Virus record (IMG/VR): IMGVR_UViG_3300029650_000167
Direction: 5' to 3' (one strand)
DNA from: a virus
Lineage: Duplodnaviria > Heunggongvirae > Uroviricota > Caudoviricetes
DNA: 38,587 nucleotides
Positions 1-33,488 of this stretch are shown piece after piece. The translations under genes were made by a program, and so were the position numbers. Under the pieces are notes generated by a model that saw only the letters and a list, made by a program, of their open reading frames with translations, searched no databases and was not told where the DNA came from. Within the stretch, counting starts at the first letter, position 1. Each line of letters begins with the position of its first letter.

Positions 1-483
1 CTATCTGGTCAGGGTGTCGTACTGTTTTTCACAGACTCTTCCGGCTTCGGCTGCCCGGTCAGCATACTCTGCCAGTTGTCTGTTTCTCTCGAGAGATTTA
101 CTGAGCACGTCGGCAAGCAAAACTCCGGTGTCTGCGGCTGACGTCCCAGCGCCGACAATGGCGTTATACTGCCTGAGCTGCTCACGGATGGCAACGAGCT
201 GTTGCTGCAACCTGCCAGCGCGAGCGGCAGCATCAAGAGCATCATTGCGCGCCTGGTCGATCCTCTGCTGCGCTTCACGTTCATTGATCGCTTTCTCCTG
301 TTCGTAGTGCTGACGAATTCTCTCATCTTCGGTTTTGCGGTCTTCTTTCGCCTGCGCATACCCGGCGTCGTACTGACGACTGCCGTGTACACTCCAGGCA
401 ACAACTCCTGATATGACCAGAACAGCAAGCACCGCCATGATAATCAACTGTTTCCGGTATGCTTTTACGAATGCCAAGATCAT
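1..483 (-). CDS. i-spanin (Rz-like) lysis protein
   Basis: 160 aa with N-terminal TM segment then charged coiled-coil; start ATG overlaps endolysin stop (ATGA); a lipoprotein ORF is embedded in another frame. Confidence 0.6.
9..245 (-). CDS. o-spanin (Rz1-like) outer-membrane lipoprotein, embedded in Rz
   Basis: Internal start [13 protein letters not shown] gives a signal peptide with lipobox LAGC, followed by a Pro/Ser-rich short mature region; entirely inside the Rz ORF. Confidence 0.5.
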   Translation of the reverse strand: MMLLMLPLALAGCSNSSLPSVSSSGSITPLSALGRQPQTPEFCLPTCSVNLSRETDNWQSMLTGQPKPEESVKNSTTP

Positions 484-1109
484 ACCGCCAGCACCTTACT
501 GGCATTGATGTATCGCGCGCGCCGGTCGTCGATGCCGTTCCGGCCACCATTGATAATCAGAGTTACACGTGCAATATCGCCGGTATACTTCATGCATCCT
601 TTGCTGGCAAAGAACCACGCCGCGCTACGAGCCGCGTATTCGTCCTGCGCCAGCAGTTCAGGACTCTCCAGCAGGTCAACCTTAAGACCGTTTCCACAGT
701 CACGATAGTTATTCAAACCGGTAACCTGGATAAGCCCGCGCCCACGGTAGTTCCAGCCATCACCAGGGGCATTGTTCCCCATGCGTTTGCTGTACACCAG
801 ATTGGCAATCGCTCTCTGGCGCTCAAGTGGCAATGGTGGTTCGCCTGCACGTCGCCCCAATGCGTTGGCCTGTCCCTGAGTGAGACGCCCAGCCCGAACA
901 AAGTTAGCCAGTCCGCTGACGCTGTAGTTGAAATTCTCCTGCAACCGGGTGAAGCCTCCAGACTCATGCCCGACCTGAGCAATAAACATAGCCTGATCTT
1001 CTGGTTTGCTGATACCAAACTCTTTCATCGCAGAAGTTATATGCGAGAACCAGCGTGCGGCCAGTGCCTCGCTGATACCAGCAGCTCGCTGGAATTGTTT
1101 AATCTCCAT
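480..1109 (-). CDS. endolysin, glycoside hydrolase family 19 (chitinase-like lysozyme)
   Basis: 209 aa with motifs [12 protein letters not shown] and [13 protein letters not shown] typical of GH19 phage endolysins; sits between holin-like and spanin genes. Confidence 0.8.
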
Positions 1110-1407
1110 GTTTAGACCTCGATACTTTGAAAATTTGAACGACGTTACCGCGCGTTTTAATAACCGCAGCTAGCATGACAGCGTTGATAATGACCTCAGA
1201 TAAATCCACAGCCATTGGCGTACGTAACCAGATTGCATAGGCGACACGAACAGGAATACTGGCCGCAGCAACAATCAGGAAATAAGCAAGCCATCCTCCC
1301 CACCTTCGGTGTTGAGAGCCGTTACGCCGGAATGTGACAACGCGAATTGCTATGCCAGTGCAAATAACTGCATTGGTGATAAGCAAAAAAAACTCATGCG
1401 TTACCAT
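1099..1407 (-). CDS. holin/antiholin-like small membrane protein
   Basis: 102 aa with two to three hydrophobic segments and a charged C-terminus, directly upstream of and overlapping the endolysin. Confidence 0.45.
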
Positions 1408-1798
1408 CGTCTTTTCTCCCCGGAATTAACTCGCGTGGATTATCGGAACGGTGATAGAGCCATATACCAATACGCACAGCGACAATTGCTGACACGAATG
1501 CGCCTGCAGAGAAAACAATCCCTTTTTCAAAAGAGTCCTGCGTGATGGTAGGGATCAGGCTGGCTATGCCGATAAGAATTGATGCTGCTGGTTTGTAAAA
1601 GAGAAGGCCGCAAAGAAAGCTGAGCATCGACAGGAGCACCCGGCGACGGATGGGGTACTCTACTGCAGAGGTAACAAAAATTACCGCTCCAGCCAAAGCA
1701 CCCAAAGCAACCTCAGGAGGAACTCCTGCTATCACCGCCGCCAGAGAACTCATGCTAAGCCACTGATTTAAAGTTTCACTGGTTAGTTGAGCTGACAT
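1394..1798 (-). CDS. holin-like membrane protein
   Basis: About 134 aa from ATG at 1798 (SD GGTGGA upstream); three predicted TM segments and charged C-terminal tail; first gene of the lysis cassette. Confidence 0.45.
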   Translation of the reverse strand: MSAQLTSETLNQWLSMSSLAAVIAGVPPEVALGALAGAVIFVTSAVEYPIRRRVLLSMLSFLCGLLFYKPAASILIGIASLIPTITQDSFEKGIVFSAGAFVSAIVAVRIGIWLYHRSDNPRELIPGRKDDGNA

Positions 1799-2000
1799 GT
1801 TTTCCACCGTTTATATGCATAACAACCTCCTGAACAGTAAAGCATTACGCATAATAAACCATTTATGGTTTTTTGTTACTTTAACATCGTCAATTCCCTG
1901 TTTTTCATGCCGAGAATAAAGCTCACCTTTTACATGACTCTGAAGAAACAAACAGTGAAGAGCAGGTTGAATACCGCACCATTTAATGGCGCGGTAGCAG

Positions 2001-2297
2001 TCAAATAGAGAAATAAACACAAAAACAAAAAACAACAGGAACAGCAAAATCCAACAGACTTCCCACATCCCACACGCGTGGATCAAAACCTCCCCACCAC
2101 GGCATGTTGATACGTTTCCCTTTCCCAAACTTTTCTATCCAGCGATATTCTGCCTGGGTGTGTTCACGCGCAATGAAGAACGTACAACCGGCTATCGCAC
2201 CGTAAGCCCAGTTTCCGGTAAAAATACCAACCAGTACCTGAGCCACAAAAGCGCAAAGCGAGTGAAGAAATGGAGTGACATCAATGCTCTTAATCAT
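2001..2297 (-). CDS. small membrane protein, translationally coupled to tailspike
   Basis: 98 aa hydrophobic protein; start ATG overlaps tailspike stop (ATGA); AT-rich; function not recognised. Confidence 0.4.
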   Translation of the reverse strand: MIKSIDVTPFLHSLCAFVAQVLVGIFTGNWAYGAIAGCTFFIAREHTQAEYRWIEKFGKGKRINMPWWGGFDPRVWDVGSLLDFAVPVVFCFCVYFSI

Positions 2298-4483
2298 GAA
2301 ACTTCCCCATTGGTTGAAAATATGGCTCCTCCAACGCCAAGTGTATTTCGTGTTGTGCTCAACCTCAGAGGGCTGGAGTCAGAATTAGAATATCCTGTAG
2401 CAGAAATAAAAGATCCTCCACTAATAGTCAACTGCGGAACATCGGCTATATCTGAATAAGTTCTGTCAGCAACAGTATTATTTATAGCCACATATGATCC
2501 AAAAAAACTTCTTATTGTTTGGTTTTTAACTTTACTTCCTTCAATGGTTATCCTACTACCACAGTCGGCAATAAATCCTGAATCTGCATCCAGCGTTGCA
2601 TTCATAAAAGAAGCTTCAGATCTCTCTACATCAATCCATCTAATATCTTTTGTGGGATTTGCACCAAATACATGACAAATATTAGAGTTAAACCTTACAC
2701 CATCTTGGAGGTGCATTAATTTTTTTATATCTGTACCCCATAGCCTTGGAAAATTAACAGATGCTCCTGCATGGCAATCAAATCCCAGCTCAGCCCCTGA
2801 GATATCTACAGCCTTTCCTGAAATAACAGCACCAGTGTCTGCATTAACGGCTGTTCCACAATTGCGCATATCATTACCAGCAACATCAACGCAACCCGCA
2901 CCATCAATACGCACACCAAGTGCACATCCATAAAAACCTTTTTCAATATTTGGTTCAAGGACTTTACCACTTGTTTCTGCATCACTTTCTTCAACGTCAT
3001 GTCGTCTTGCATCAACATATGCTGTATGAATGCAGGTTAATCCACGATATGAGCAATGTATAGTTTTATGGTCGCGTATATTAACATTTGAACCATCTCT
3101 TACATTCCATCCTATATAACAATAGCTTGCACTTGACCCCTGAAAATCTGCTTTAACATTATAAATACAATTAACTGACGCAACCGTACTCTCTGTGCAC
3201 CGTTCAAACTTGCTTACAGGCATTGATGCCTTGACATTATTTACCAGTTGCAGGGAAGAGTATCTGCTATAAGAAAAATCACATACGTAATACCCTTCTG
3301 GCATATATGCAGCAACACTTTCCTCATCAGGAGCACATCCGGTATGATATGCACTAATTTTTGCACCAAAACTACCATGAATTCCAACGTAGAACTTTCG
3401 AGCACCTGAATACGGATAGAAATTAAGTTCAGCTTTTTGAGTTACAATAAATGCACAAACATCGCTATCATCTCTATTTTCTTCGATCTGAATAGCAAAT
3501 ACAGGACTTTTTGCTGCATCGCAAATGTAAAATAAATACTTGTATTCGTAATACGTTCTAACGATTTTAGTAAACAAACGAGTGTCAGAGAAAACCACTG
3601 AGTCTTCTGATGTTATTTTAATCCAAGACAAATCAACACCTGAACTGAATTCAATTTGATAGTTGATAATATGCCCGGTCTTAATTCTTATTTCGCAGAA
3701 AGCATTACCACCATCCCACATAGGTCTCATTGACTGGGCTGCAATGATTGCATCTTTGAGTGTAGGGTAATCACCCCATTCGCCAACAGTAATAACAAAA
3801 GTATAATATGAGTTAAAAACAGCGGCATTTTTGCCTTTGGATATCAACTCCTTAATCATAAAAATATTATCTTCGTAATCACAAGGAGAAATTATATCCC
3901 TCATTTTGCTTTGAAATGTTCGTTGTCTTGCCCCGCTTCCTGACGGTATAAACCAACCAAAACCACCAACAACCCCGGCGATTGCAGCATCGACATAATT
4001 ACGCATTGAGCGATTATTTACAGCGTCCTGCTCAAATGATGGATCTGCAAGGTTAGAAATTTTGTTTTGCTTTGCATCGTAATATTTTGCAAGCAAAGAT
4101 GGTTTCATCAATGCACGTCTGAACCACCCAAAACATCGCTGGATCAGCATCGTCAGGTAGTCAAATGCATCTTCATGAACTTCGGGGAAAAATTTTCCCT
4201 GATTGCGAAGATCAGTCTCCTGCACCACATCAAGCACACGCTCTATCGTAATTCGCCAGCCAGCAGCAAGCGGCGACGGGAGAACCACAGAACCGCCACT
4301 ATAAGTGCCCGCCCCAGTTACCGTATAACCGGTATCCAGAACCAATTCTGTTACGTTCCCGTTCAGGTCAGACACCTGAACAACCAGGTCTGATTTTTTG
4401 AAAATACGGAAGGTATACGGAAACGATGTCGTAACGCCGTTACCGGTGTATTCGTTGTGGTCAACTTCGGTTGAGACCGTCAT
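2294..4483 (-). CDS. tailspike / receptor-binding protein with beta-helix-like C-terminal region
   Basis: 729 aa; SD GGAG 8 nt before ATG; N-terminal about 110 aa in typical GC composition, remainder AT-rich with Gly/Asn/Ser/Thr-rich repeats suggesting a beta-helix depolymerase-type domain. Confidence 0.7.
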   Translation of the reverse strand: MTVSTEVDHNEYTGNGVTTSFPYTFRIFKKSDLVVQVSDLNGNVTELVLDTGYTVTGAGTYSGGSVVLPSPLAAGWRITIERVLDVVQETDLRNQGKFFPEVHEDAFDYLTMLIQRCFGWFRRALMKPSLLAKYYDAKQNKISNLADPSFEQDAVNNRSMRNYVDAAIAGVVGGFGWFIPSGSGARQRTFQSKMRDIISPCDYEDNIFMIKELISKGKNAAVFNSYYTFVITVGEWGDYPTLKDAIIAAQSMRPMWDGGNAFCEIRIKTGHIINYQIEFSSGVDLSWIKITSEDSVVFSDTRLFTKIVRTYYEYKYLFYICDAAKSPVFAIQIEENRDDSDVCAFIVTQKAELNFYPYSGARKFYVGIHGSFGAKISAYHTGCAPDEESVAAYMPEGYYVCDFSYSRYSSLQLVNNVKASMPVSKFERCTESTVASVNCIYNVKADFQGSSASYCYIGWNVRDGSNVNIRDHKTIHCSYRGLTCIHTAYVDARRHDVEESDAETSGKVLEPNIEKGFYGCALGVRIDGAGCVDVAGNDMRNCGTAVNADTGAVISGKAVDISGAELGFDCHAGASVNFPRLWGTDIKKLMHLQDGVRFNSNICHVFGANPTKDIRWIDVERSEASFMNATLDADSGFIADCGSRITIEGSKVKNQTIRSFFGSYVAINNTVADRTYSDIADVPQLTISGGSFISATGYSNSDSSPLRLSTTRNTLGVGGAIFSTNGEVS

Positions 4484-4587
4484 GTTAAATCTCCAGATAG
4501 TCGCAGCACCCGTTGCGCCGCATATCTGGTTATTCTATTACCTGAAAAACCACATATGGATAGAAAGACTGTGAATACGAATAGATA

Positions 4588-4602
4588 TTACCTTTCAGGT
4601 AA
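4588..4602. promoter_or_regulatory. operator-like palindrome TTACC-TTTCA-GGTAA
   Basis: Perfect 15-bp inverted repeat in the divergent region between tailspike and the LexA-box gene; on minus strand flanked by TTGCAA and TATCTA at -35/-10 spacing. Confidence 0.6.
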
Positions 4603-4641
4603 TTTGCAAAACGTGCTGGATAGCAAACAAATTATTTGCTA

Positions 4642-4657
4642 CTGTATAAATATACAG
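4642..4657 (+). promoter_or_regulatory. LexA box (SOS box) CTGT-N8-ACAG
   Basis: TACTGTATAAATATACAGTT at 4640-4659 matches the enterobacterial LexA consensus TACTGTATATATATACAGTA at 18 of 20 positions; overlaps an extended -10-like TGtATAAAT; 22 nt upstream of SD GGAG. Confidence 0.75.
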
Positions 4658-4678
4658 TTATTGCATGGAGAAGATAAG

Positions 4679-4936
4679 ATGCAGCAGTATCACTATCCAC
4701 TGGAAGACGGATTTACCGAAAGGATTCACACGCCGGGAGGCGTCAGGTCACTGGTGGAGGGATCGCATTTGATGAAATTACTCCGGGATCTCGATAAGGA
4801 TGGATTTAATGTCGATGGCCCACTTGCCGAACTGACTGCACTGATTAACTACGTCACCAGCTCACAGATGTCTATGCAGGATCTGCAAACACATCTCGAC
4901 TATTGTGCCGAACAATTACGAAAGCAAACCAGATAA
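4679..4936 (+). CDS. small LexA-controlled protein, antirepressor-like domain (paralog of Bro-N protein C-terminus)
   Basis: 85 aa; SD GGAG 8 nt upstream; residues HTPGGVRSLVEGSHLMKLL...DGFNVDGPLAELT...QTH align with the C-terminus of ORF 5252-5962. Confidence 0.5.
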   Translation: MQQYHYPLEDGFTERIHTPGGVRSLVEGSHLMKLLRDLDKDGFNVDGPLAELTALINYVTSSQMSMQDLQTHLDYCAEQLRKQTR

Positions 4937-4967
4937 GGTTTGCAATTACCAAGTGGAGTGCTTATAT

Positions 4968-4982
4968 TTACCTTTGCGGTAA
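4968..4982. promoter_or_regulatory. operator-like palindrome TTACC-TTTGC-GGTAA
   Basis: Perfect match to the dispersed 15-bp motif, between the small LexA-box gene and the Bro-N gene. Confidence 0.5.
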
Positions 4983-5062
4983 ATTTACATCGCACTCCTC
5001 TTGTGCCATAGTAATCAGGCACTGGCAAAATCCAGTGCCGGGATTGGCGTCCCGAGTTACTA

Positions 5063-5085
5063 AGTGGCGCATACCACGCCAGACG
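5063..5085 (+). terminator. rho-independent terminator-like hairpin
   Basis: Stem ACCACG/CGTGGT with 5-nt loop followed by seven T. Confidence 0.45.
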
Positions 5086-5251
5086 TGGTTTTTTTATGCG
5101 TTAAGCACAGCTATATCCGAATTATGGTGGGCTGGGCAGGGGTCCGAAAGGACGCCGGTACCACTTAGGCCGGTACGCCAACCTTGTCCAGTTCACCACC
5201 AGTAATTGGCGTTGCGGTGGTGATTAAAATCACTAAGTGGAGATAACCACC

Positions 5252-5962
5252 ATGGCTAATGCTCAAACTGCCATCTTCAAATTTGAATCTGTTAACCCTA
5301 TCCGTTCCATCATTATCGATGGCCAACCATGGTTTGTAGCCCAAGACGTTTGTAGTGCGCTGCGCATCCAAAACGTCACCCAAGCACTTGAAAAACTGGA
5401 TGATGATGAAAGGTCTATGTTCAACATAGGGCATGAACATCGTGCAATTTTTGACAGCCGAGTAAAAGAGATCAACATCATCTCCGAGTCAGGCCTCTAC
5501 ACACTGATCCTCCGCTGCCGCGACGCAGTGACACCAGGCACTATCCCCTACCGCTTTCGTAAATGGGTTACAGGTGAGGTTCTTCCTCAGATCCGCCGCA
5601 CCGGAAGTTACATTAAAAACTCGCTCCCGCAGGAAGAACGCATAAAGATGGTTGCCGACCAGGTAGCCAACGCCACGGCGTCAGCAGTAATGCAGGCGAT
5701 GAAGATAGAGAACAAAACCTACAGTGCCCCACTGAAGCCCGGCTACCGTAGCCTGATTCATTCGCCGTCTGGTGTTCTCGGCCTGACGGAGAACTCACTG
5801 CTGATGAATCTGCTGAACCAGTTACAGGAAGACGGGCACGACGTATCGGGCGCGGCGGCGGAGCTGACCACCATGTTCTGCTACATCGTCGGTGTGAGCA
5901 AATGCCTGCGTGATATCCAGACCCACGCGGAGTACATCAACGACAAGGCTGGGTTCTTCTGA
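5252..5962 (+). CDS. Bro-N domain protein, putative antirepressor
   Basis: 236 aa from ATG 5252 (SD GGAG 9 nt upstream; track shows GTG at 5237); N-terminal FKFE...IDGQPWFVAQDVCSAL...ESGLYTLILRC resembles Bro-N/KilA-N; C-terminal about 70 aa paralogous to ORF 4679-4936. Confidence 0.6.
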   Translation: MANAQTAIFKFESVNPIRSIIIDGQPWFVAQDVCSALRIQNVTQALEKLDDDERSMFNIGHEHRAIFDSRVKEINIISESGLYTLILRCRDAVTPGTIPYRFRKWVTGEVLPQIRRTGSYIKNSLPQEERIKMVADQVANATASAVMQAMKIENKTYSAPLKPGYRSLIHSPSGVLGLTENSLLMNLLNQLQEDGHDVSGAAAELTTMFCYIVGVSKCLRDIQTHAEYINDKAGFF

Positions 5963-6055: not shown

Positions 6056-6223
6056 ATGACAGCGTTGAAAAATCGTACTCAGCACAATGAACAAGCCAAG
6101 CAATGCTGGGATGTCATTGGAAAAGTTATGCTTGGCCGCGCAAGCAAAGAGCGCGACAAGGATATGGTTTACCAGACAGGAACATCTTTCAGCGACTTCA
6201 AGGCGGCATTTCGCTCCAAATAG
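6056..6223 (+). CDS. small hypothetical protein (55 aa)
   Basis: Strong SD AGGAGG 6 nt before ATG; below the ORF-track size cutoff; basic, no TM segment. Confidence 0.4.
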   Translation: MTALKNRTQHNEQAKQCWDVIGKVMLGRASKERDKDMVYQTGTSFSDFKAAFRSK

Positions 6224-6243
6224 AAGCACATCAGGAGTTTTCC

Positions 6244-6684
6244 TTGAAGTTTAACATTAGAATATCTAATAGTTTTCTACATGGGGAAAGCAACACCCCT
6301 TTCGCTGTAGACGGACCTTTCCTTACTGATGATGAAATAAAAATCATACAAAGTTTTTTAGAGGATGTTGCCAATGGAAGGGCGCTTGTTGGAAAAAACA
6401 AGCCCTCATGGGTTGATGATAACCATGATAAAATTCCCGGCTCAGACAATTATGAGCAAGAGAATTATTGGCATTATCATTGTGGGCCAACATGGTATCC
6501 AAACACATTTAAGAATTATACCATTAACTTAAATTTCAACCCTAGCGGAAGGCATTCTAATGAATGCATTCATTATGCAAAAAATGATAATGAAATTGTC
6601 ATTGTTGGATTTTCAAGAGAACACATACCTTTCCTTTCATCAGATGGAAACAACAATCCGCTTTTTAATGATGAAGAAGAATAG
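6244..6684 (+). CDS. hypothetical protein, AT-rich moron (start uncertain, possibly TTG)
   Basis: Open frame from 6103 to 6684; no internal ATG after the upstream small ORF ends, TTG at 6244 is preceded by GGAG; about 33 percent GC versus about 52 percent for the phage; followed by a strong terminator. Confidence 0.4.
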   Translation: MKFNIRISNSFLHGESNTPFAVDGPFLTDDEIKIIQSFLEDVANGRALVGKNKPSWVDDNHDKIPGSDNYEQENYWHYHCGPTWYPNTFKNYTINLNFNPSGRHSNECIHYAKNDNEIVIVGFSREHIPFLSSDGNNNPLFNDEEE

Positions 6685-6704
6685 CCCGCGCTGCGGGCTT
6701 TTTT
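6683..6704 (+). terminator. rho-independent terminator
   Basis: AGCCCGC-GCT-GCGGGCT hairpin followed by TTTTTT. Confidence 0.7.
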
Positions 6705-6776
6705 GTGGACGAAACAAAAGTCAGTGCTACACTCATTGACGCCACATTGAGGTGGCTTATAGATGGAAATTTCACA

Positions 6777-6938
6777 ATGAAAAAAGCATTTGCTGCACTG
6801 TTCGTTTTGTTGTCTCTGGTAGCTTCAACTCAGGCCTTTGCCGGTCGTTGTCAGCACGACAGCGACACTGCCGCTGACGGCTCCCGCTGCGGTGGGCGTT
6901 CTGCGGATTCCCGCCCGGGCGGCGGTGGCATTCGTTAA
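6777..6938 (+). CDS. small secreted peptide (signal peptide plus about 31-aa Gly/Arg/Asp-rich mature region with two Cys)
   Basis: MKKAFAALFVLLSLVASTQAFA looks like a Sec signal peptide ending at an AxA site; internal ATG of the track ORF 6705-6938. Confidence 0.4.
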   Translation: MKKAFAALFVLLSLVASTQAFAGRCQHDSDTAADGSRCGGRSADSRPGGGGIR

Positions 6939-6961: not shown

Positions 6962-6973
6962 GTGACATGTCAC
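6962..6973. other. perfect 12-bp palindrome GTGACATGTCAC (copy 1 of 3)
   Basis: Identical 12-mer also at 24567 and 26832; overlaps the TGA stop of the minus-strand ORF 6970-7266. Confidence 0.5.
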
Positions 6974-7266
6974 GTCCCTTTTCTGAATGATAGCCATTCG
7001 AAAAATGATGACATTCCACCGCAGACAATAGCAAAGATGATCCCACCAAAGAAGAGAAGGCCAGCCTGCCACCACTCCCACCGCCATACATCCACAGCGC
7101 CAACCATACCAACAATCGCTCCAACAAATGGAATATAGCTCACGATGAAAGCAATGGGGGCTGCAATTATCCAGTGCAATCCCCACCATGATTCAAGCCC
7201 AGCCATAATTGCTGCCAACTGAAAAAGACCAACGACGATATAAACAATGAATCCTATAGCTTGCAT
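6970..7266 (-). CDS. small integral membrane protein
   Basis: 98 aa with three hydrophobic segments and several Trp; function unknown. Confidence 0.45.
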   Translation of the reverse strand: MQAIGFIVYIVVGLFQLAAIMAGLESWWGLHWIIAAPIAFIVSYIPFVGAIVGMVGAVDVWRWEWWQAGLLFFGGIIFAIVCGGMSSFFEWLSFRKGT

Positions 7267-7461: not shown

Positions 7462-9936
7462 TTATTGCGGAGTGACATCCTGAGGTCGCCACCAGTATGT
7501 CTGGTTAAACTCTTTCTTCGAACGTTGCTCCATTTTACGCAAATAGCCTGGTGAAAAATACTCCTGCATCTGATTAAAGATCATGTGATCGAGAGCCGCC
7601 TTCAAGTACCAGAGATTCGCACCTGGCATCAAACCTTTCCCCAGCTTCACCAGATCACCACCAGTCTGCTCACTCTTCCCTTCCACAGCATTTAGCGGTA
7701 TGCCCTGAGCTATCTTCACTACGTCATCAACCAGACCAGCTACCGGGCCAAGCATCGACGCCAGCGCGCCGCTCCCGTACCTAGTGTGATCTGACAATAA
7801 AAAGTCACCGTAAAGGCCAAGACCACCACCTTTCAGTAGAGCACCAAGCCAAAATTTAGCAGCATCTTCTCCTGTCATCTCTCGAGGATTACGACCAGAC
7901 GCAAGGTCGTTAAGTTGTTGCGACAAAGCGCCAAGAATGGTCGTACTGGCAATAAACGTCGCAATATATGCCGCACGCCCACCAGCAGACGGCATACCCA
8001 TAGCGCGTGACCAGTGACGCATAACAACCGAGATAGGGAACGATTTAAACAGGAAAACACTTCTCGTTAATTCACCTTTCCATGTTCCACGCTGAATACC
8101 AGAACCGGTTATCAGTTGCTCACGTGCTCCCGGTGTAATAACAGCCATATCAACTTCTTCAGTTACGGCACCGAGCAGTTTACGCATTGCCTCAAATTTC
8201 ACGCGTTCAGGCTCACCAAGATGTTTAACTGCTGAATCAGGGATACGCATAATGCTTTCCGGTGTCAGCATCGTATTATTACCGTTCCCCCAGTCCTCCT
8301 GTTGCGCCAACTTCCATACGCTCCAGTCTGTGTCAGTAATCCCTTTGCTTTTCAGGATACGAAAATCAGAGTCATCGAGGCGACGAAGGTCTGGTGTCCG
8401 TGACACTACTTCTCCCAGGCTTCCCATCATGGTTACGCCATAGGCGCGCTTGTGCGCATCTGACCATGCTGTAAGCCCACTGGCACGCATTACCGCCGTT
8501 GCAGCCCAACGAGACACAGACGGCCCCATATTATCCATCGCCCAGCGGTTAACGCTGCCAAGTAGAGATTCCATCGCCAGACCAGCGCGGCGCGCCCGCG
8601 CAAGTTCTGTACGGTTCGTTGGGTCCATAGCTTCAAGCTGGTTGCGGAATAACTGGTTCATTGGAAGGTTGGTAACCTTCGCAGACAGATACATGGTTCC
8701 AAGATCAGAGAACGATGACAGCAACGCGGATCCGAGTCTGCTGGCAACCAGCCAGTTGCGGATATTGTCAGACCATCGCGCGATGTGCGGATTCGCTACA
8801 GGCTGTGTCTTTCCGGAAATAAAGTTGTACAGATTCTCTGTGTTGTTCGCCAGCCGCTCGACTTTACCGGTTTTACTCGGGTTAGCTGTTGCCGTTTCTG
8901 CCTTCACCTGATCAAGAAGAGAGCGGAAAACATGATCGGGGTTTGGACCATATGTTTCCACCAGTGCAATATCTTTACTGATACCTTCCAGGTGACCGAC
9001 CATGATTTCCCATAGAGAGCGATCGCCATAAAGTTGCTGATATTGCAGATAGGAATCTGCATCTTTGAAATGTATCTGTCGTGATGCATTACCACGGTTA
9101 GCACGTGCGCCGGAAATTCGCATTCCGGTATCAGTAAGCTTATTCAGCCCACCAGTAGCGATCGTGTTATAAGCCTCTCCAAGAAATGCAGACAACTCGG
9201 CATCGTTCATCAGTTGTCCATCGGCTCGGGTATAATATTTGCGATCCAGCTTACCTATAACATCGCTAACCCATTTATCTTTTGATACCGCCCCAACCTT
9301 TTCCATAGAATGATGTTGAGGGATCCCCCAGTTTTCGAGATAGCCAATGTCCCCACCAGCATCATTAAACCGGCGGCGCAGTAGCTCTGTCACTTCTCTC
9401 CACGCCTTAGCACCTTTTCTTGCTTTAGCATTGCCAGTATTTTGCCCCCGCATTTCATATACCAGGTCACGTACGCCAGCTTCATCTTCAAACAGACCAA
9501 AAAAGCGAGGATCAACTGCTTCGAATGCCTCCTGCAATTGACTCAATGCATAATCACGGGTGGCTTTTGTTCTGGATTCAACAGAGAGGAAATTCGATTT
9601 ACCGTCTGCATTAAAAGCAATAGTACGGTTAAGAGCGCCAAGTTTCCCATCAGCCCCTTGATAGCTATTGATAAATTTATCCAATCTCTGACGTGCGGCT
9701 ATAGTGAGGGCCACACGACGTTTCTTTAATGCCGCTTCTCGCTGTAATTCTTCAGATGCCAATTGTGCTGCACGATACAGCCGCTCTGATTCGGAAAGTT
9801 GTCGCCACGACATCGGGTCATCACGAGCAATGGAGCGCATATTTCGATAAATGCGGTCTTCAATGTTCTGTATTTCTCGCGCCGTTAACGTGCGCTGCGC
9901 CGCCTGCTGGACCGCTTGTATACATTCCTGTCTCAT
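7462..9936 (-). CDS. internal virion / ejection protein (large)
   Basis: 824 aa, last large gene of the core series before the moron island; assignment by size and synteny with T7 gp16-like proteins, no motif recognised. Confidence 0.5.
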   Translation of the reverse strand: MRQECIQAVQQAAQRTLTAREIQNIEDRIYRNMRSIARDDPMSWRQLSESERLYRAAQLASEELQREAALKKRRVALTIAARQRLDKFINSYQGADGKLGALNRTIAFNADGKSNFLSVESRTKATRDYALSQLQEAFEAVDPRFFGLFEDEAGVRDLVYEMRGQNTGNAKARKGAKAWREVTELLRRRFNDAGGDIGYLENWGIPQHHSMEKVGAVSKDKWVSDVIGKLDRKYYTRADGQLMNDAELSAFLGEAYNTIATGGLNKLTDTGMRISGARANRGNASRQIHFKDADSYLQYQQLYGDRSLWEIMVGHLEGISKDIALVETYGPNPDHVFRSLLDQVKAETATANPSKTGKVERLANNTENLYNFISGKTQPVANPHIARWSDNIRNWLVASRLGSALLSSFSDLGTMYLSAKVTNLPMNQLFRNQLEAMDPTNRTELARARRAGLAMESLLGSVNRWAMDNMGPSVSRWAATAVMRASGLTAWSDAHKRAYGVTMMGSLGEVVSRTPDLRRLDDSDFRILKSKGITDTDWSVWKLAQQEDWGNGNNTMLTPESIMRIPDSAVKHLGEPERVKFEAMRKLLGAVTEEVDMAVITPGAREQLITGSGIQRGTWKGELTRSVFLFKSFPISVVMRHWSRAMGMPSAGGRAAYIATFIASTTILGALSQQLNDLASGRNPREMTGEDAAKFWLGALLKGGGLGLYGDFLLSDHTRYGSGALASMLGPVAGLVDDVVKIAQGIPLNAVEGKSEQTGGDLVKLGKGLMPGANLWYLKAALDHMIFNQMQEYFSPGYLRKMEQRSKKEFNQTYWWRPQDVTPQ

Positions 9937-31373: not shown

Positions 31374-32152
31374 GCTTCAGGGCTGTTCCAGTGCGGAACG
31401 TTGTTATCAGGTAATGTTGATTGCTTCTGTCTGCTAATCTGCAGCCGCCTTGCCAGCTTCTGCTCCCACTGTGCCTGATGGTATGCCTTACCCTCAGCCA
31501 TCCAGTAAATTCTGAACTCTGCAAGTTCCTGTGCCGTTGGCAGACTGTCCAGGTAGATCCCCTGCAATGAGCTTTTCCGAAGAAAGTCATCTGATGGCTG
31601 CCATTGTTCATGCATGACAAATTTGCCTAATTGCCCTGGCCCACCAGGAGGAACAAAGTTATTCATCACGGCGTTGTTTGCTCCGGGGTCATGAGGCACA
31701 GAATCCCCGCTTTTTGTCCTGCTCTCCCTCTCTTGGTTAAATGACTGGTTATATGACTGGTTCTGGATCCCGTTTTTGGGATCATTCAACATCCCGTTTT
31801 TGGGATCATTCAACATCCCGTTTTTGGGTATATTCCCGTTTTCGGGTTCATTGCCCCCCTCCCGGTTGCCTTTAATGTTCCCGTTTTTGGTTATATTAAG
31901 AGAGAAAACCCGCACTCTTTTTGTCGCTCCCTTTCTCTCTCCGGTATCTGAAATAAGCCCCATTTTCATGAGCGATATAAGCCCGGCCTGCACGGTTTTT
32001 TTATTCAGGCAAGTGTCTTTAACGAGGCGTTCTATGCTGGGGTAGCAGAGGTTATATTCATCGGCTCTGTCAGCCATCGAGAGCAGTATGAGCTTTAATG
32101 ATGAGCTACCTGGATCTGTCTCCCAGGCCCAATCTGTTGCATGTCTGCTCAT
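31355..32152 (-). CDS. replication initiator (O-like) with N-terminal winged-HTH and internal origin repeats
   Basis: 265 aa; N-terminal DWAWE...LKLILLSMADRADE...CYPSIERL HTH; central repeats PKNGMLNDPKNG encoded by iterons; SD GGAG. Confidence 0.7.
   Translation of the reverse strand: MSRHATDWAWETDPGSSSLKLILLSMADRADEYNLCYPSIERLVKDTCLNKKTVQAGLISLMKMGLISDTGERKGATKRVRVFSLNITKNGNIKGNREGGNEPENGNIPKNGMLNDPKNGMLNDPKNGIQNQSYNQSFNQERESRTKSGDSVPHDPGANNAVMNNFVPPGGPGQLGKFVMHEQWQPSDDFLRKSSLQGIYLDSLPTAQELAEFRIYWMAEGKAYHQAQWEQKLARRLQISRQKQSTLPDNNVPHWNSPEAWEDFL
31768..31890. repeat. origin iterons, five copies of TCCCGTTTTTGGG-like repeat
   Basis: Copies at 31768, 31792, 31816 (24-bp period), 31834 and 31879; each is an imperfect inverted repeat; located inside the O-like gene. 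Confidence 0.65.
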
Positions 32153-32167
32153 GATTAATCTCCGCTA

Positions 32168-32368
32168 TCAGCTTGAATGTTGTGGGGAGGAATTAATCAT
32201 GATCTGCTTAATCTCTGCCCTGATACGACGGTTTGATTCCATGGTGCACTCAACACAGTGTCCGTTGTAAACCCAGCGTTCACTGTCATGTCCGTGCTTA
32301 CATGTTTTTCCGGTGTAGTAGCGTTTAAGTCCGCGCTTTGCGGCATCAATACGTGTAATGATTTCCAT
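32168..32368 (-). CDS. small zinc-finger protein
   Basis: About 66 aa from ATG 32368; CKHGH...HCVEC metal-binding pattern; occupies the cII-equivalent position. Confidence 0.35.
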   Translation of the reverse strand: MEIITRIDAAKRGLKRYYTGKTCKHGHDSERWVYNGHCVECTMESNRRIRAEIKQIMINSSPQHSS

Positions 32369-32448
32369 GGTAAGCCCTGTTATTAGTATTAGGATTACGG
32401 TTATTTTGTGCTGACACAAAAAAAAGATCAACCATATTTGGTTTTTTA

Positions 32449-32463
32449 TTACCTTTGAGGTAC
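32449..32463. promoter_or_regulatory. operator-like palindrome (imperfect) TTACC-TTTGA-GGTAC
   Basis: 9 of 10 match; between the cro-side terminator and the zinc-finger/O/P genes. Confidence 0.4.
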
Positions 32464-32470
32464 GAATAGA

Positions 32471-32497
32471 TATGAAAAGACCGCCGGATGGCGGTCT
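32471..32497 (-). terminator. rho-independent terminator downstream of cro-like gene (tR1-like)
   Basis: On the minus strand AGACCGCC-ATCC-GGCGGTCT followed by TTTTCAT. Confidence 0.55.
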
Positions 32498-32518
32498 ACA
32501 GAGGGTTGTGGCTGGATA

Positions 32519-32749
32519 TCATGAGTAGAAGAAGTATGCCAGTTCTGCTTTTGAGCGCAGCCATTGTCTTGATTTACAGGCTTTAAAAAGCCCATCCATC
32601 AATACCTTACCTGGCATTTTGCGCTTACCTGTTAAGTGAGTCTGGATATAGTGACTCGTCGTTCCGGCTTCCTGTGCGAAGGCTTCACGCTCATCCGGAG
32701 TAAGTGCAAGCCAGTGCTTTTTGAAATCGAAATGTCCGTTATCGCTCAT
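32519..32749 (-). CDS. Cro-like HTH regulator
   Basis: 76 aa, divergent from the repressor gene; HTH-like stretch EAFAQEAGTTSHYIQTHLTG. Confidence 0.5.
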   Translation of the reverse strand: MSDNGHFDFKKHWLALTPDEREAFAQEAGTTSHYIQTHLTGKRKMPGKVLMDGLFKACKSRQWLRSKAELAYFFYS

Positions 32750-32785
32750 AGCTATTGCCTGATATTTATTTCAGATAATAAATAT

Positions 32786-32800
32786 TCACCTATAAGGTAA
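32786..32800. promoter_or_regulatory. operator OR-like site A (TCACC-TATAA-GGTAA)
   Basis: 9 of 10 match; in the divergent cro/repressor region, inside the spacer of a minus-strand TTGATT...GAATAT promoter. Confidence 0.5.
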
Positions 32801-32816
32801 CAAAAATCAAGGATAG

Positions 32817-32831
32817 TTACCCACGAGGTGC
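32817..32831. promoter_or_regulatory. operator OR-like site B (TTACC-CACGA-GGTGC, weak)
   Basis: 8 of 10 match, 17 bp from site A and abutting site C. Confidence 0.3.
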
Positions 32832-32833
32832 AT

Positions 32834-32848
32834 TTACCTGTTGGGTAA
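32834..32848. promoter_or_regulatory. operator OR-like site C (TTACC-TGTTG-GGTAA)
   Basis: Perfect motif about 55 bp upstream of the repressor start. Confidence 0.55.
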
Positions 32849-32903
32849 TATTGCTTTAAATTGAATCATCTTCTGATTCAGATATGAGGCGATTTTCCAG
32901 AAA

Positions 32904-33488
32904 ATGAAAAGTATCCAGGACGTCCGCAGGCAAAATCTCAACGACTTGATCGACCGTGAATTCAATGGTGTTCAGACGCGGATGGCTGAAAAACTTGGAA
33001 CTCAGGCAAATCTGGTAAACCGCTGGGCTCTTGGCAAGAAGGTTATCGGCGACCAGGTTGCACGAAAAATTGAAGCTGCCGCCAATAAACCCCGTAACTG
33101 GCTTGATATCGATCGCTCGCTTTCTCAGGAAGGTTTTCAGCCTGTCGGCCCAAGCGACATTGGCCAGCTGGCGGCTCACAACCTGGAACGCTGGATGAGC
33201 GAAAGCCGCGACCTTTCAACACAGGGAAAACTTCACCGCGCATCCGGCGTAGCCCAGGTGACAATCAGCCGCCTGTTAAACAATGAGGTCAGCGTTTCCA
33301 TTTCCACCCTGGAGAATGTTGCATCCGCATTCGGGCGTCACGGCTATGAATTACTGATTCACCCGCACGACCCTGCGACCATCAACTATGATCGCTCGCG
33401 CTACGCATTGTTACCCGAAACCGAGAAAGCAAAGATCGAAAGTTACATTGAATTTGTCATCAACCAGAACGAAAAAAACAAACAATAA
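32904..33488 (+). CDS. prophage repressor with tandem XRE-type HTH domains, no peptidase domain
   Basis: 194 aa; two HTH-like segments (TRMAEKLGTQANLVNRWALGKK and ASGVAQVTISRLLNNEVSVSISTLENVA); no Ser/Lys S24 autocleavage motif; divergent from cro-like gene. Confidence 0.7.
   Translation: MKSIQDVRRQNLNDLIDREFNGVQTRMAEKLGTQANLVNRWALGKKVIGDQVARKIEAAANKPRNWLDIDRSLSQEGFQPVGPSDIGQLAAHNLERWMSESRDLSTQGKLHRASGVAQVTISRLLNNEVSVSISTLENVASAFGRHGYELLIHPHDPATINYDRSRYALLPETEKAKIESYIEFVINQNEKNKQ

Follow-up and report, generated by a model that had tools for sequence, protein, structure and literature searches.

A mosaic Uetakevirus tailspike with a predicted beta-helix body, probably exchanged between unrelated phages, and a candidate 3' crossover site in the adjoining small membrane-protein gene

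The range of bacterial surface sugars open to attack by a phage is set by its tailspike body, and a catalogue of exchangeable bodies and of their exact swap joints is therefore useful for the engineering of phages and tailocins. Genes that block or modify the receptor lie beside phage receptor-binding genes in several systems e.g. GtrABC of P22, Llp of T5 and Cor of phi80 and N15. The slot after the tailspike gene of Uetake- and Lederbergviruses otherwise holds O-antigen modification genes; in phiV10 the gene directly after the tailspike gene encodes the receptor-modifying O-acetyltransferase Oac, whereas in the locus described here the same slot holds the gene of a small membrane protein. The Uetakevirus tailspikes phiV10 gp25, epsilon15 gp20, PAS61 and phiv142-3 Orf6 resemble the present one in anchor, genomic position and modular principle, but their bodies are unrelated to its body. 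The P22-like phage JEP4 (QOC67869 and the downstream JEP4_21) shares with it amino acids (aa) 273-729, codons 1 to ~85 of the small gene and a 4-nt overlap between the two genes, and differs in having the P22 head-binding domain PF09008 in place of the Uetakevirus anchor, in its first ~100 body residues (42-51% identical) and in a distinct small-gene 3' end. Conserved anchors with horizontally exchanged receptor-binding domains have been established for Uetake- and Lederbergviruses (PMC10408124; PMC11522302), so tailspike modularity in these phages is already published; JEP4 and HZ41, which carry the body described here, are absent from the tables of Pas et al. 2023/2024 (PMC10408124, PMC11522302).

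The stretch of DNA that we analysed (38,587 nucleotides, hereafter the window) is a Uetakevirus genome (phiV10/epsilon15-like) with 99.8% identity to Escherichia phage HEMP4, and on the evidence of its sequence the tailspike belongs to a temperate member of this group. Synteny comparison gave the order virion genes, tailspike, lysis cassette, as in phiV10 and phiv142-3, i.e. the tailspike gene occupies the Uetakevirus slot after the virion structural genes and ahead of the lysis cassette; holins, a GH19 endolysin and Rz are encoded in window 1-1807. The open reading frame that a sequence-only reading had called a tailspike gene was confirmed from the list of open reading frames. The whole 729-aa product is covered by phrog_5662 ('tail fiber protein', E=0), and the gene is 99.6-99.8% identical to that in the unannotated HEMP4 record and present at >=99% identity in 11 complete E. 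coli genomes. The features of the locus are as follows.

2294..4483, minus strand: tailspike / receptor-binding protein gene, 729 aa (open reading frame list; phrog_5662 over the full length)
4139..4483, minus strand: anchor core, aa 1-115, particle-binding domain; GC 0.496, phage-typical
3932..4138, minus strand: anchor neck, aa 116-184, backbone-derived; GC intermediate, 0.435
3667..3931, minus strand: start of the receptor-binding body, aa 185-272, in a form specific to this allele; GC ~0.35
2297..3666, minus strand: main part of the predicted beta-helix receptor-binding body, aa 273-729, like JEP4, HZ41 and 92CQ; GC 0.38
2294..2297, minus strand: ATGA stop/start overlap of the tailspike gene and the small gene (read from the sequence)
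2001..2297, minus strand: gene of a small, predicted three-helix membrane protein, 98 aa (open reading frame list; phrog_1443, E=3e-55)
2046..2226, minus strand: conserved core of the small gene, putative 3' homology arm (three-way DNA alignment)

The N-terminal part of the tailspike is homologous to phiV10 gp25 and epsilon15 gp20. The DNA of the anchor core is conserved in all Uetakeviruses, and the matches to epsilon15, PAS61 and TL-2011b stop at window ~4138. The neck shows 95-97% DNA identity to phiv142-3 down to ~3950; at the protein level aa 1-203 are 92% identical to phiv142-3, where the similarity ends, and aa 1-166 are 68% identical to phiV10. Many PHROG tail families likewise match aa 1-166/206 only, and a PDB sequence search matched aa 1-202 to Dpo31/Dpo36 (28lx, 8ck1; E=5.5e-32). 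The module boundary had been placed at about aa 110, near the GC break described below; the conserved anchor extends instead to about aa 184-203. In the proposed mechanism aa 1 to ~184 would hold the spike on the tail, as an anchor specific to the lineage. No match to the P22-like head-binding domain PF09008 was found in the window tailspike, although relatives with the JEP4-type body carry it, and attachment of the tail-collar/fibre or T7 type was rejected because such N-termini occur only in relatives of the body.

Beyond the anchor the homology changes abruptly. The shared motif RT.Q.K...DF (~window 3930) opens a segment, aa 185-272, that has 42-60% aa identity to every homologue beyond its own cluster, 55-60% DNA identity to JEP4 and less than 50% DNA identity to phiv142-3. 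From about aa 273-290 on the protein is ~100% identical to the JEP4 tailspike (89% over the whole of aa 185-729), and a sliding DNA identity profile gave 98-100% identity to JEP4 across aa 273-729 and codons 1-85 of the small gene. The sequence comparisons show that three parts or more make up the mosaic: aa 1-184, aa 185-272, and aa 273-729 together with downstream codons 1-85. The main body is near-identical in the P22-like phages JEP4 and HZ41, and most of the body is also present in the 130-kb myovirus 92CQ; further copies lie in an Aeromonas P2/HP1-like prophage and a siphovirus-like prophage. Besides the 11 complete E. coli genomes mentioned above, five others carry the body. The body belongs to a rare, unnamed receptor-binding family, with homologues in only 23 clusters among 5.8 billion proteins. 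Across these clusters it is joined to N-termini of the PF09008, PF18668, PF12571 or PF03906 type, some with an SGNH esterase domain. In IMG/VR prophages all four combinations of anchor and body occur: the Uetakevirus anchor is followed by the window body at five loci and by the phiv142-3 body at five, and the P22 head-binding domain by the window body at six and by the phiv142-3 body at three.

The composition break, breakpoints, shared segments and co-segregation that we observed are very probably accounted for by a modular Uetakevirus tailspike, in which the phage's own anchor is combined with a beta-helix body that unrelated phages exchange as a cassette through homologous recombination. 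The mechanism and the direction of transfer are what we infer from these patterns. The imported stretch would run from the RT.Q.K...DF junction to about codon 85 of the small gene (~window 2045), the 3' crossover falling in the ~180-bp core of that gene, which is placed directly after the tailspike gene in Uetakevirus and P22-like prophages. A second, more recent exchange would have made window 2040-3666 nearly identical to the P22-like JEP4 lineage. The mosaic of a phage-typical anchor and a horizontally exchanged body proposed by the sequence-only reading is therefore supported by the homology breakpoints and the predicted fold; the body had been exchanged as proposed, but it is itself a mosaic (aa 185-272 versus 273-729) and not a single swapped module. 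It is possible, if rather doubtful, that the more recent exchange ran the other way, with a Uetakevirus as donor of 2040-3666 and the P22-like (JEP4) and 92CQ lineages as recipients. Identity is symmetric and the direction of this exchange cannot be read from it alone, and the body has a higher AT content than either backbone. What points, weakly, against a Uetakevirus donor is that JEP4, HZ41, 92CQ and six P22-like IMG/VR loci share an aa 172-277 variant that aligns collinearly with the other family members, while the window variant of aa 185-272 is limited to one cluster.

The right-handed beta-helix that had been suggested for the body was predicted with high confidence: the AlphaFold2 (AF2) model of the monomer is a right-handed parallel beta-helix (pLDDT 93.6). 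The closest solved structure is gp15 of Staphylococcus phage Andhra (PDB 8egr), which has 17% sequence identity and differs in its Gram-positive host, its N-terminal attachment and in that sequence homology is undetectable. Searches of aa 204-729 against Pfam, NCBIfam and PDB sequences gave no match (PDB matched the anchor only), PADLOC returned nothing for the body, no Pfam domain was found on the body in any of the 23 homologous clusters, and at the sequence level the body matched neither a curated beta-helix or glycanase family (e.g. Pectate_lyase_3, Beta_helix, GH28) nor any family of enzymes, catalytic motif or homologue of solved structure. The term depolymerase used in the sequence-only reading is an inference at fold level only, as no catalytic family was matched. 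In the proposed mechanism aa ~185-729 would bind surface polysaccharide; binding of O-antigen or capsule is the most likely function, and the body probably also cleaves or modifies the polysaccharide. That it is instead a non-enzymatic adhesin, which like pertactin or Vag8 only binds its receptor, seems unlikely: its structural neighbours are mostly polysaccharide-active enzymes and tailspikes, some acidic and basic residues are invariant in the family (e.g. E334, E335, R337 and D341 in full-length numbering, and the further acidic residues D402, D463 and D538), and according to published work most tailspikes of Uetakeviruses degrade O-antigen (PMC11522302). A search of the literature on the host strains of 16 E. 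coli prophages for the receptor serogroup yielded nothing usable.

The downstream gene had been described as translationally coupled to the tailspike gene, and the two do overlap: the ATG of the small gene overlaps the TGA of the tailspike gene as ATGA, with GGGGAAG a few bases upstream. The same -4 overlap occurs in JEP4, in Aeromonas L006 and in 11 of 11 IMG/VR loci with the window body. A scan for promoters and terminators around the two genes found promoters in no more than background numbers, and neither the junction nor the stretch immediately behind the pair had a terminator. A three-way DNA alignment showed the window switching from JEP4-like to backbone-like sequence at ~2042-2048, beside a core of ~180 bp in which the Uetakevirus and P22-like lineages differ little or not at all. 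The first ~90 nt of the small gene tracked the body type in 26 of 26 typed loci, and its last ~45 nt with the downstream DNA tracked the backbone, also in 26 of 26, with 3'-end identity measured by fixed-register comparison; because prophage loci are not independent lineages, this perfect co-segregation overstates the number of events. The distance from the tailspike gene to the small gene, -4 or +79 nt, is characteristic of each body. The proposal that the small gene arrived with the body thus holds for the junction and the first ~85 codons; the last ~13 codons are of backbone type. Nor is the gene cargo specific to this body, as phages of both genera also carry it, with the ~180-bp core identical, behind unrelated bodies. 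Since it is not body-specific and has a backbone-type 3' end, the small gene is read here as the site of the 3' crossover, not simply as imported cargo, and its core as a putative recombination arm.

A different account of the pair is that the small gene is functionally tied to the body (e.g. through receptor-specific immunity or modification) and that selection, not a homology arm, keeps them together. The pair, 4-nt overlap included, does occur both in podoviruses of E. coli and in a myovirus prophage of Aeromonas, and the small gene lies near the body in the siphovirus-like prophage. However, the same small gene follows at least eight unrelated receptor-binding genes, its copies differ only in a few N-terminal residues and the backbone-linked C-terminus, and chromosomal members of its family adjoin ligA in sphingomonads, all of which makes such a tie quite improbable. 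The genes that it follows include those with the phiv142-3 body, four other Uetakevirus bodies, the Gally tailspike, lambdoid tail fibres (227-346 aa) and the 1H12 tail protein.

The GC break that had been claimed within the tailspike gene was found by a GC scan: the best single change-point lies at codon 123 (window 4113), with a GC content of 0.499 before and 0.382 after it, and its likelihood gain was reached by only two of 300 permutations. The AT-richness claimed for the body was confirmed as well: positions 2300-4200 are the lowest-GC 1.8 kb of the window (0.382 against a mean of 0.489, sd 0.029). The body was not, however, glycine-rich as had been stated (Gly 8.1%, compared with 8.2% in the other structural open reading frames); the residues enriched in it are Ser, Ile, Cys, Tyr and Phe. 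Body GC is below that of its flanks in all lineages examined, and is low also in the unrelated phiv142-3 body and in the 68%-identical Aeromonas copy, so composition alone neither dates nor proves transfer; in the proposed mechanism the low GC would reflect a foreign, shared pool of such bodies. That there was no transfer at all, the GC drop reflecting what a beta-helix protein that evolved in place requires in amino acids and codons, can be dismissed as extremely improbable: the unusual residue composition and the AT-rich unrelated bodies would suit it, but GC3 falls along the gene from about 0.5 to 0.10-0.38, so that the shift is not merely one of amino-acid choice, 1.6 kb is 98-100% identical to phages of another genus between flanks of 40-55%, and all four anchor and body combinations exist. 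Overall, the observation from which this analysis started was partly confirmed and its interpretation partly supported.

The window adds an uncharacterised body family that has no Pfam model or close solved structure, a natural two-by-two set of anchor and body chimeras whose breakpoints are located with a precision of tens of bases, and a candidate 3' recombination arm inside a small membrane-protein gene that occurs in about a third (34%) of complete E. coli genomes. The mosaic of anchor and body is expected biology, and the small gene, common and with the crossover point inside it, is the part worth following up. The downstream gene had been described as an AT-rich membrane gene: hydropathy and the AF2 model (pLDDT 90.8; helices 8-27, 30-57 and 78-97) predict three hydrophobic, presumably membrane-spanning helices in the 98-aa protein, but its AT-richness is weak (GC 0.451 against a window mean of 0.49). 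No family in Pfam, NCBIfam or PADLOC matched it, Foldseek against the PDB gave nothing below E=5, and it did not belong to the Acyl_transf_3, GtrA/GtrB or O-antigen polymerase/ligase families. A profile search of 1.84 billion representatives recovered only stand-alone proteins of about 60-146 aa, none of them fused to a known domain.

Several identities were considered for the small protein and rejected. A holin or other lysis membrane protein is contradicted by the lack of any holin-family match, while the two adjacent genes match Phage_holin_8 and Phage_holin_3_7, and by the position of the gene, which in JEP4, Gally, 1H12 and Aeromonas L006 is separate from the lysis genes. It has no sequence or fold similarity to Oac, GtrABC, Llp or Cor, and was accordingly rejected as an Oac, Gtr or Cor/Llp analogue by homology; unlike these genes, it shares the strand of the tailspike gene, overlaps it and is not specific to a receptor type. 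As it lies on the same strand and overlaps the tailspike gene, it looks like a late gene and not one expressed from the prophage. The 98-aa protein belongs to a large family that has no name, made up of stand-alone, predicted three-helix inner-membrane proteins that share the motif FIAREHTQAEYRWI...MPWWGGFD. In podo-, sipho- and myovirus prophages from several genera the gene of the family lies immediately behind that of the receptor-binding protein. We tentatively suggest that the protein might act as a generic late envelope factor, and that its gene might serve as a universal 3' landing pad. The envelope role may, for example, lie in excluding superinfecting phages or in masking or altering the receptor. 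No description of either role was found in the literature searched. If the landing-pad reading is correct, it is the highly conserved DNA core that allows receptor-binding cassettes to pass from one phage to an unrelated one. The gene is annotated as hypothetical everywhere.

The window (38.6 kb) is the complete genome of a temperate podovirus in the genus Uetakevirus (phiV10/epsilon15-like). Its first 8 kb are 99.8% identical to Escherichia phage HEMP4 (an unannotated record), and 74% of that length matches phiv142-3, a Uetakevirus whose tailspike body is unrelated, at 95.5% identity. The minus-strand order is virion protein, tailspike, small gene and lysis cassette, and the layout around the tailspike is the same in phiV10 and phiv142-3.

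Genes around the tailspike, with the source of each assignment
7462-9936, minus strand: virion protein (ORF list and family search)
2294-4483, minus strand: tailspike (ORF list)
2001-2297, minus strand: small gene, 98 aa (ORF list)
1394-1807, minus strand: holin 1 of the lysis cassette (family search)
1099-1407, minus strand: holin 2 of the lysis cassette (family search)
480-1109, minus strand: GH19 endolysin of the lysis cassette (family search)
1-483, minus strand: Rz of the lysis cassette (family search)

The sequence-only reading had proposed that the tailspike carries a swapped-in, AT-rich body behind a phage-typical anchor. What it described is largely correct and the anchor/body mosaic holds in outline, but the reading needs amending as to where the modules join, mosaicism within the body and what part the small gene plays. 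The composition break itself was recovered by a single change-point fit within the tailspike gene. It falls at codon 123 (window 4113): GC is 0.499 before and 0.382 after, and 2 of 300 permutations reached the same likelihood gain. GC3 falls from ∼0.5 to 0.10-0.38 across the break, and no other 1.8-kb stretch of the window is as poor in GC as 2300-4200 (0.382; window mean 0.489, sd 0.029).

Four segments can be told apart in this region, the anchor taking up residues 1 to ∼184. The tailspike protein is 92% identical to that of phiv142-3 over residues 1-203, with no match further on, and 68% identical to that of phiV10 over residues 1-166; the sole PDB sequence match, to the depolymerases Dpo31/Dpo36 (28lx, 8ck1), was likewise limited to residues 1-202. 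Residues 185-729, i.e. the body, are 89% identical to the tailspike of JEP4, a P22-like phage (Lederbergvirus), with 42-51% identity in the first ∼100 body residues and essentially 100% from about residue 290. We computed DNA identity in 60-nt blocks against phiv142-3 and JEP4: 3950-4700 is 95-100% identical to phiv142-3, 3620-3920 matches both poorly, 2040-3620 is 98-100% identical to JEP4, and phiv142-3-like DNA resumes below ∼2040. The body swap boundary lies ∼60-80 codons past the GC break, at an RT.Q.K...DF motif common to Uetakevirus- and P22-type spikes. The two positions are offset because the part of the anchor that is conserved in every Uetakevirus ends at codon ∼123; epsilon15, PAS61 and TL-2011b match the DNA only as far as window ∼4138.

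GC of the body and of its flank or backbone in the five lineages compared
This window: body 0.35-0.38; flank/backbone 0.50
JEP4: body 0.34-0.38; flank/backbone 0.44-0.45
Aeromonas prophage: body 0.47; flank/backbone 0.62
Siphovirus-like prophage: body 0.43; flank/backbone 0.52-0.53
phiv142-3 (unrelated body): body 0.36; flank/backbone 0.46

As the body was below its surroundings in GC in all of these lineages, low GC is a general mark of such exchangeable modules and not a clock for this event.

When residues 185-729 were searched against 5.8 billion proteins, only 23 clusters were found, with four or more types of N-terminus among them (P22 head-binding domain PF09008, Tail_spike_N PF18668, tail-collar fibre domain PF12571 and T7 fibre N-terminus PF03906). 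The body region has no Pfam domain in any of the 23; two of them additionally have an SGNH esterase domain. A P2/HP1-like prophage of Aeromonas media has a homologue of the body at 68% identity and a siphovirus-like prophage one at 49%; that of E. coli phage 92CQ, whose genome is 130 kb, is 97.5% identical in DNA. An AlphaFold2 model of the body, built from the 23-sequence alignment, was confident (pLDDT 93.6, pTM 0.89) and supports, by prediction, the beta-helix fold that had been claimed. Its closest solved structure is Andhra gp15, a receptor-binding protein of a Staphylococcus phage, which the structure's authors relate to alginate lyases and the P22 and Det7 spikes (PMC9710869). We infer a possible enzymatic activity of the body only from the company that its predicted fold keeps. 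The literature searched gave no receptor or serogroup for the body.

The body is not glycine-rich as had been described (8.1% Gly vs 8.2% in the other structural proteins), but is enriched in Ser, Ile and, unusually, Cys. It contains 17 cysteines (window 2297-3931; 3.1% vs 0.4% in other structural proteins), several of which (C79, C293, C336 and C358, alignment numbering) are invariant in the 23-member family. For a phage tailspike this content is out of the ordinary, and it could point to disulfides or metal sites.

The lead to follow in this mosaic is the small gene. Its GC of 0.451 is only slightly under average, so it is not the AT-rich gene that had been described. A core of ∼180 bp (window 2046-2226) is near-identical in the window, JEP4 and phiv142-3 in a three-way DNA alignment, with a single differing site in its first 147 bp. 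The window is JEP4-like upstream of this core and phiv142-3-like from about 2042-2048 (codon ∼85) on. Typed IMG/VR loci form a factorial anchor-by-body pattern.

Anchor and body combinations in typed IMG/VR loci
This body: 5 loci on a Uetakevirus anchor, 6 loci on a P22 head-binding domain
phiv142-3 body: 5 loci on a Uetakevirus anchor, 3 loci on a P22 head-binding domain

The spacing of the small gene is constant for each body (-4 or +79 nt). In 26/26 typed loci the junction tracks body type together with codons 1 to ∼25 of the small gene, and its last ∼15 codons and the downstream DNA track the phage backbone, again in 26/26; these loci are not independent lineages, and the co-segregation therefore shows a rule and not a count of events. 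The earlier proposal that body and small gene arrived together holds for the junction and the 5' part of the gene but fails for its 3' end, which is of backbone type. Body exchange is most simply read as two-armed homologous recombination, in which the 5' arm would be supplied by the anchor/body junction or by sequence within homologous bodies, and the 3' arm by the conserved small-gene core. Where the phiv142-3 body is concerned, the inter-genus 5' crossover is at a DFGAKGDGITDDT motif.

The small gene is not specific to this body, judging from its neighbours. Its phiv142-3 copy (87% identity) follows an unrelated body (GH28-related in RefSeq), and the copies in P22-like Gally and lambdoid 1H12 follow receptor-binding proteins without similarity to this body. 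Of 80 retrieved IMG/VR loci, 78 have a tailspike or the distal part of a tail fibre as the closest ORF upstream; one of the others has a 92-aa ORF, like one between the 1H12 tail protein and small gene, and the other a transposase. An ATGA overlap of tailspike stop and small-gene start was seen, with GGGGAAG directly upstream, and this same-strand overlap suggests co-expression with the late tail gene; the PGAP start is four codons downstream of the overlapping ATG, making the true start ambiguous. The position is similar to that of genes in other phages that modify or block a receptor and sit beside the receptor-binding gene, such as phiV10 oac, a positional likeness without homology.

The 98-aa protein has three predicted hydrophobic helices (8-27, 30-57 and 78-97; pLDDT 90.8), the last two of which are joined by a highly conserved loop of strongly basic character. 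It belongs to phrog_1443 ('unknown function'), with no Pfam, NCBIfam or PADLOC family and no structural neighbour. The family comprises 428 clusters at 90% identity, every one named 'hypothetical'; at 50% identity there are 446 representatives, each a stand-alone protein of ∼60-146 aa. It occurs on 434 IMG/VR contigs and in 1828/5426 complete E. coli genomes (median 2 copies, maximum 7). The E. coli copies, including those in E. coli B derivatives, are annotated 'hypothetical protein' throughout. In Chelativorans and a Desulfovibrio MAG the family again adjoins tail genes, and in sphingomonads it adjoins ligA and other housekeeping genes; the latter neighbours indicate that it also has chromosomal, apparently non-phage members. 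At loci of Sphingomonas/Sphingomicrobium and related MAGs (L062, L066, L067, L073 and other alphaproteobacterial loci) the neighbours are NAD-dependent DNA ligase, pirin and peptidase M3, not tail genes. The Desulfovibrio sp. MAG (L072) encodes a 935-aa tailspike (3112-5916) whose N-terminal anchor is of the Uetakevirus type, and the small-gene homologue comes directly after it without a gap; this reflects either an unexpectedly wide host range of this phage type or a mis-binned contig.

Receptor-binding proteins of Uetake- and Lederbergviruses have genus-conserved anchors (residues 1-205 of phiV10 and 1-124 of HK620 were used), their bodies pass horizontally between genera, and conserved DNA motifs flanking the body have been proposed as recombination hotspots in lytic genera (Pas et al. 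2023, PMC10408124). The mosaic tailspike is therefore a fresh instance of a known phenomenon. JEP4 and HZ41, P22-like phages that carry this body, are absent from the tables of Pas et al. 2023, so the body subtype is apparently uncatalogued there. The papers searched gave no description of the post-tailspike small membrane gene, its breadth or its proposed 3'-crossover role.

ORFs upstream of the tailspike
4556-4936, plus strand: 126-aa ORF, opposite in strand to the tailspike, matching the C-terminal part of anti-repressor family phrog_1760
5237-5962, plus strand: Bro-N protein, neighbour of the 126-aa ORF
6103-6684, plus strand: 193-aa ORF in a low-GC island, matching phrog_5954

The C-terminus of the 126-aa ORF is similar to that of the Bro-N protein ('...LRDLDKDGFNVDGPLAELT...' vs '...LQEDGHDVSGAAAELT...'), suggesting a duplicated or exchanged C-terminal module. 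A second low-GC island of the window (6100-6800, GC 0.36-0.40) holds the 193-aa ORF, which has no Pfam, NCBIfam or PADLOC match, is flanked by the Bro-N anti-repressor gene on one side and a membrane ORF of 98 aa (6970-7266, minus strand, phrog_3075) on the other, and looks like another inserted accessory gene. GC also dips to 0.43 at 32000-33000, coinciding with a change in the sign of GC skew, and this may mark the edge of the prophage's immunity or early region.
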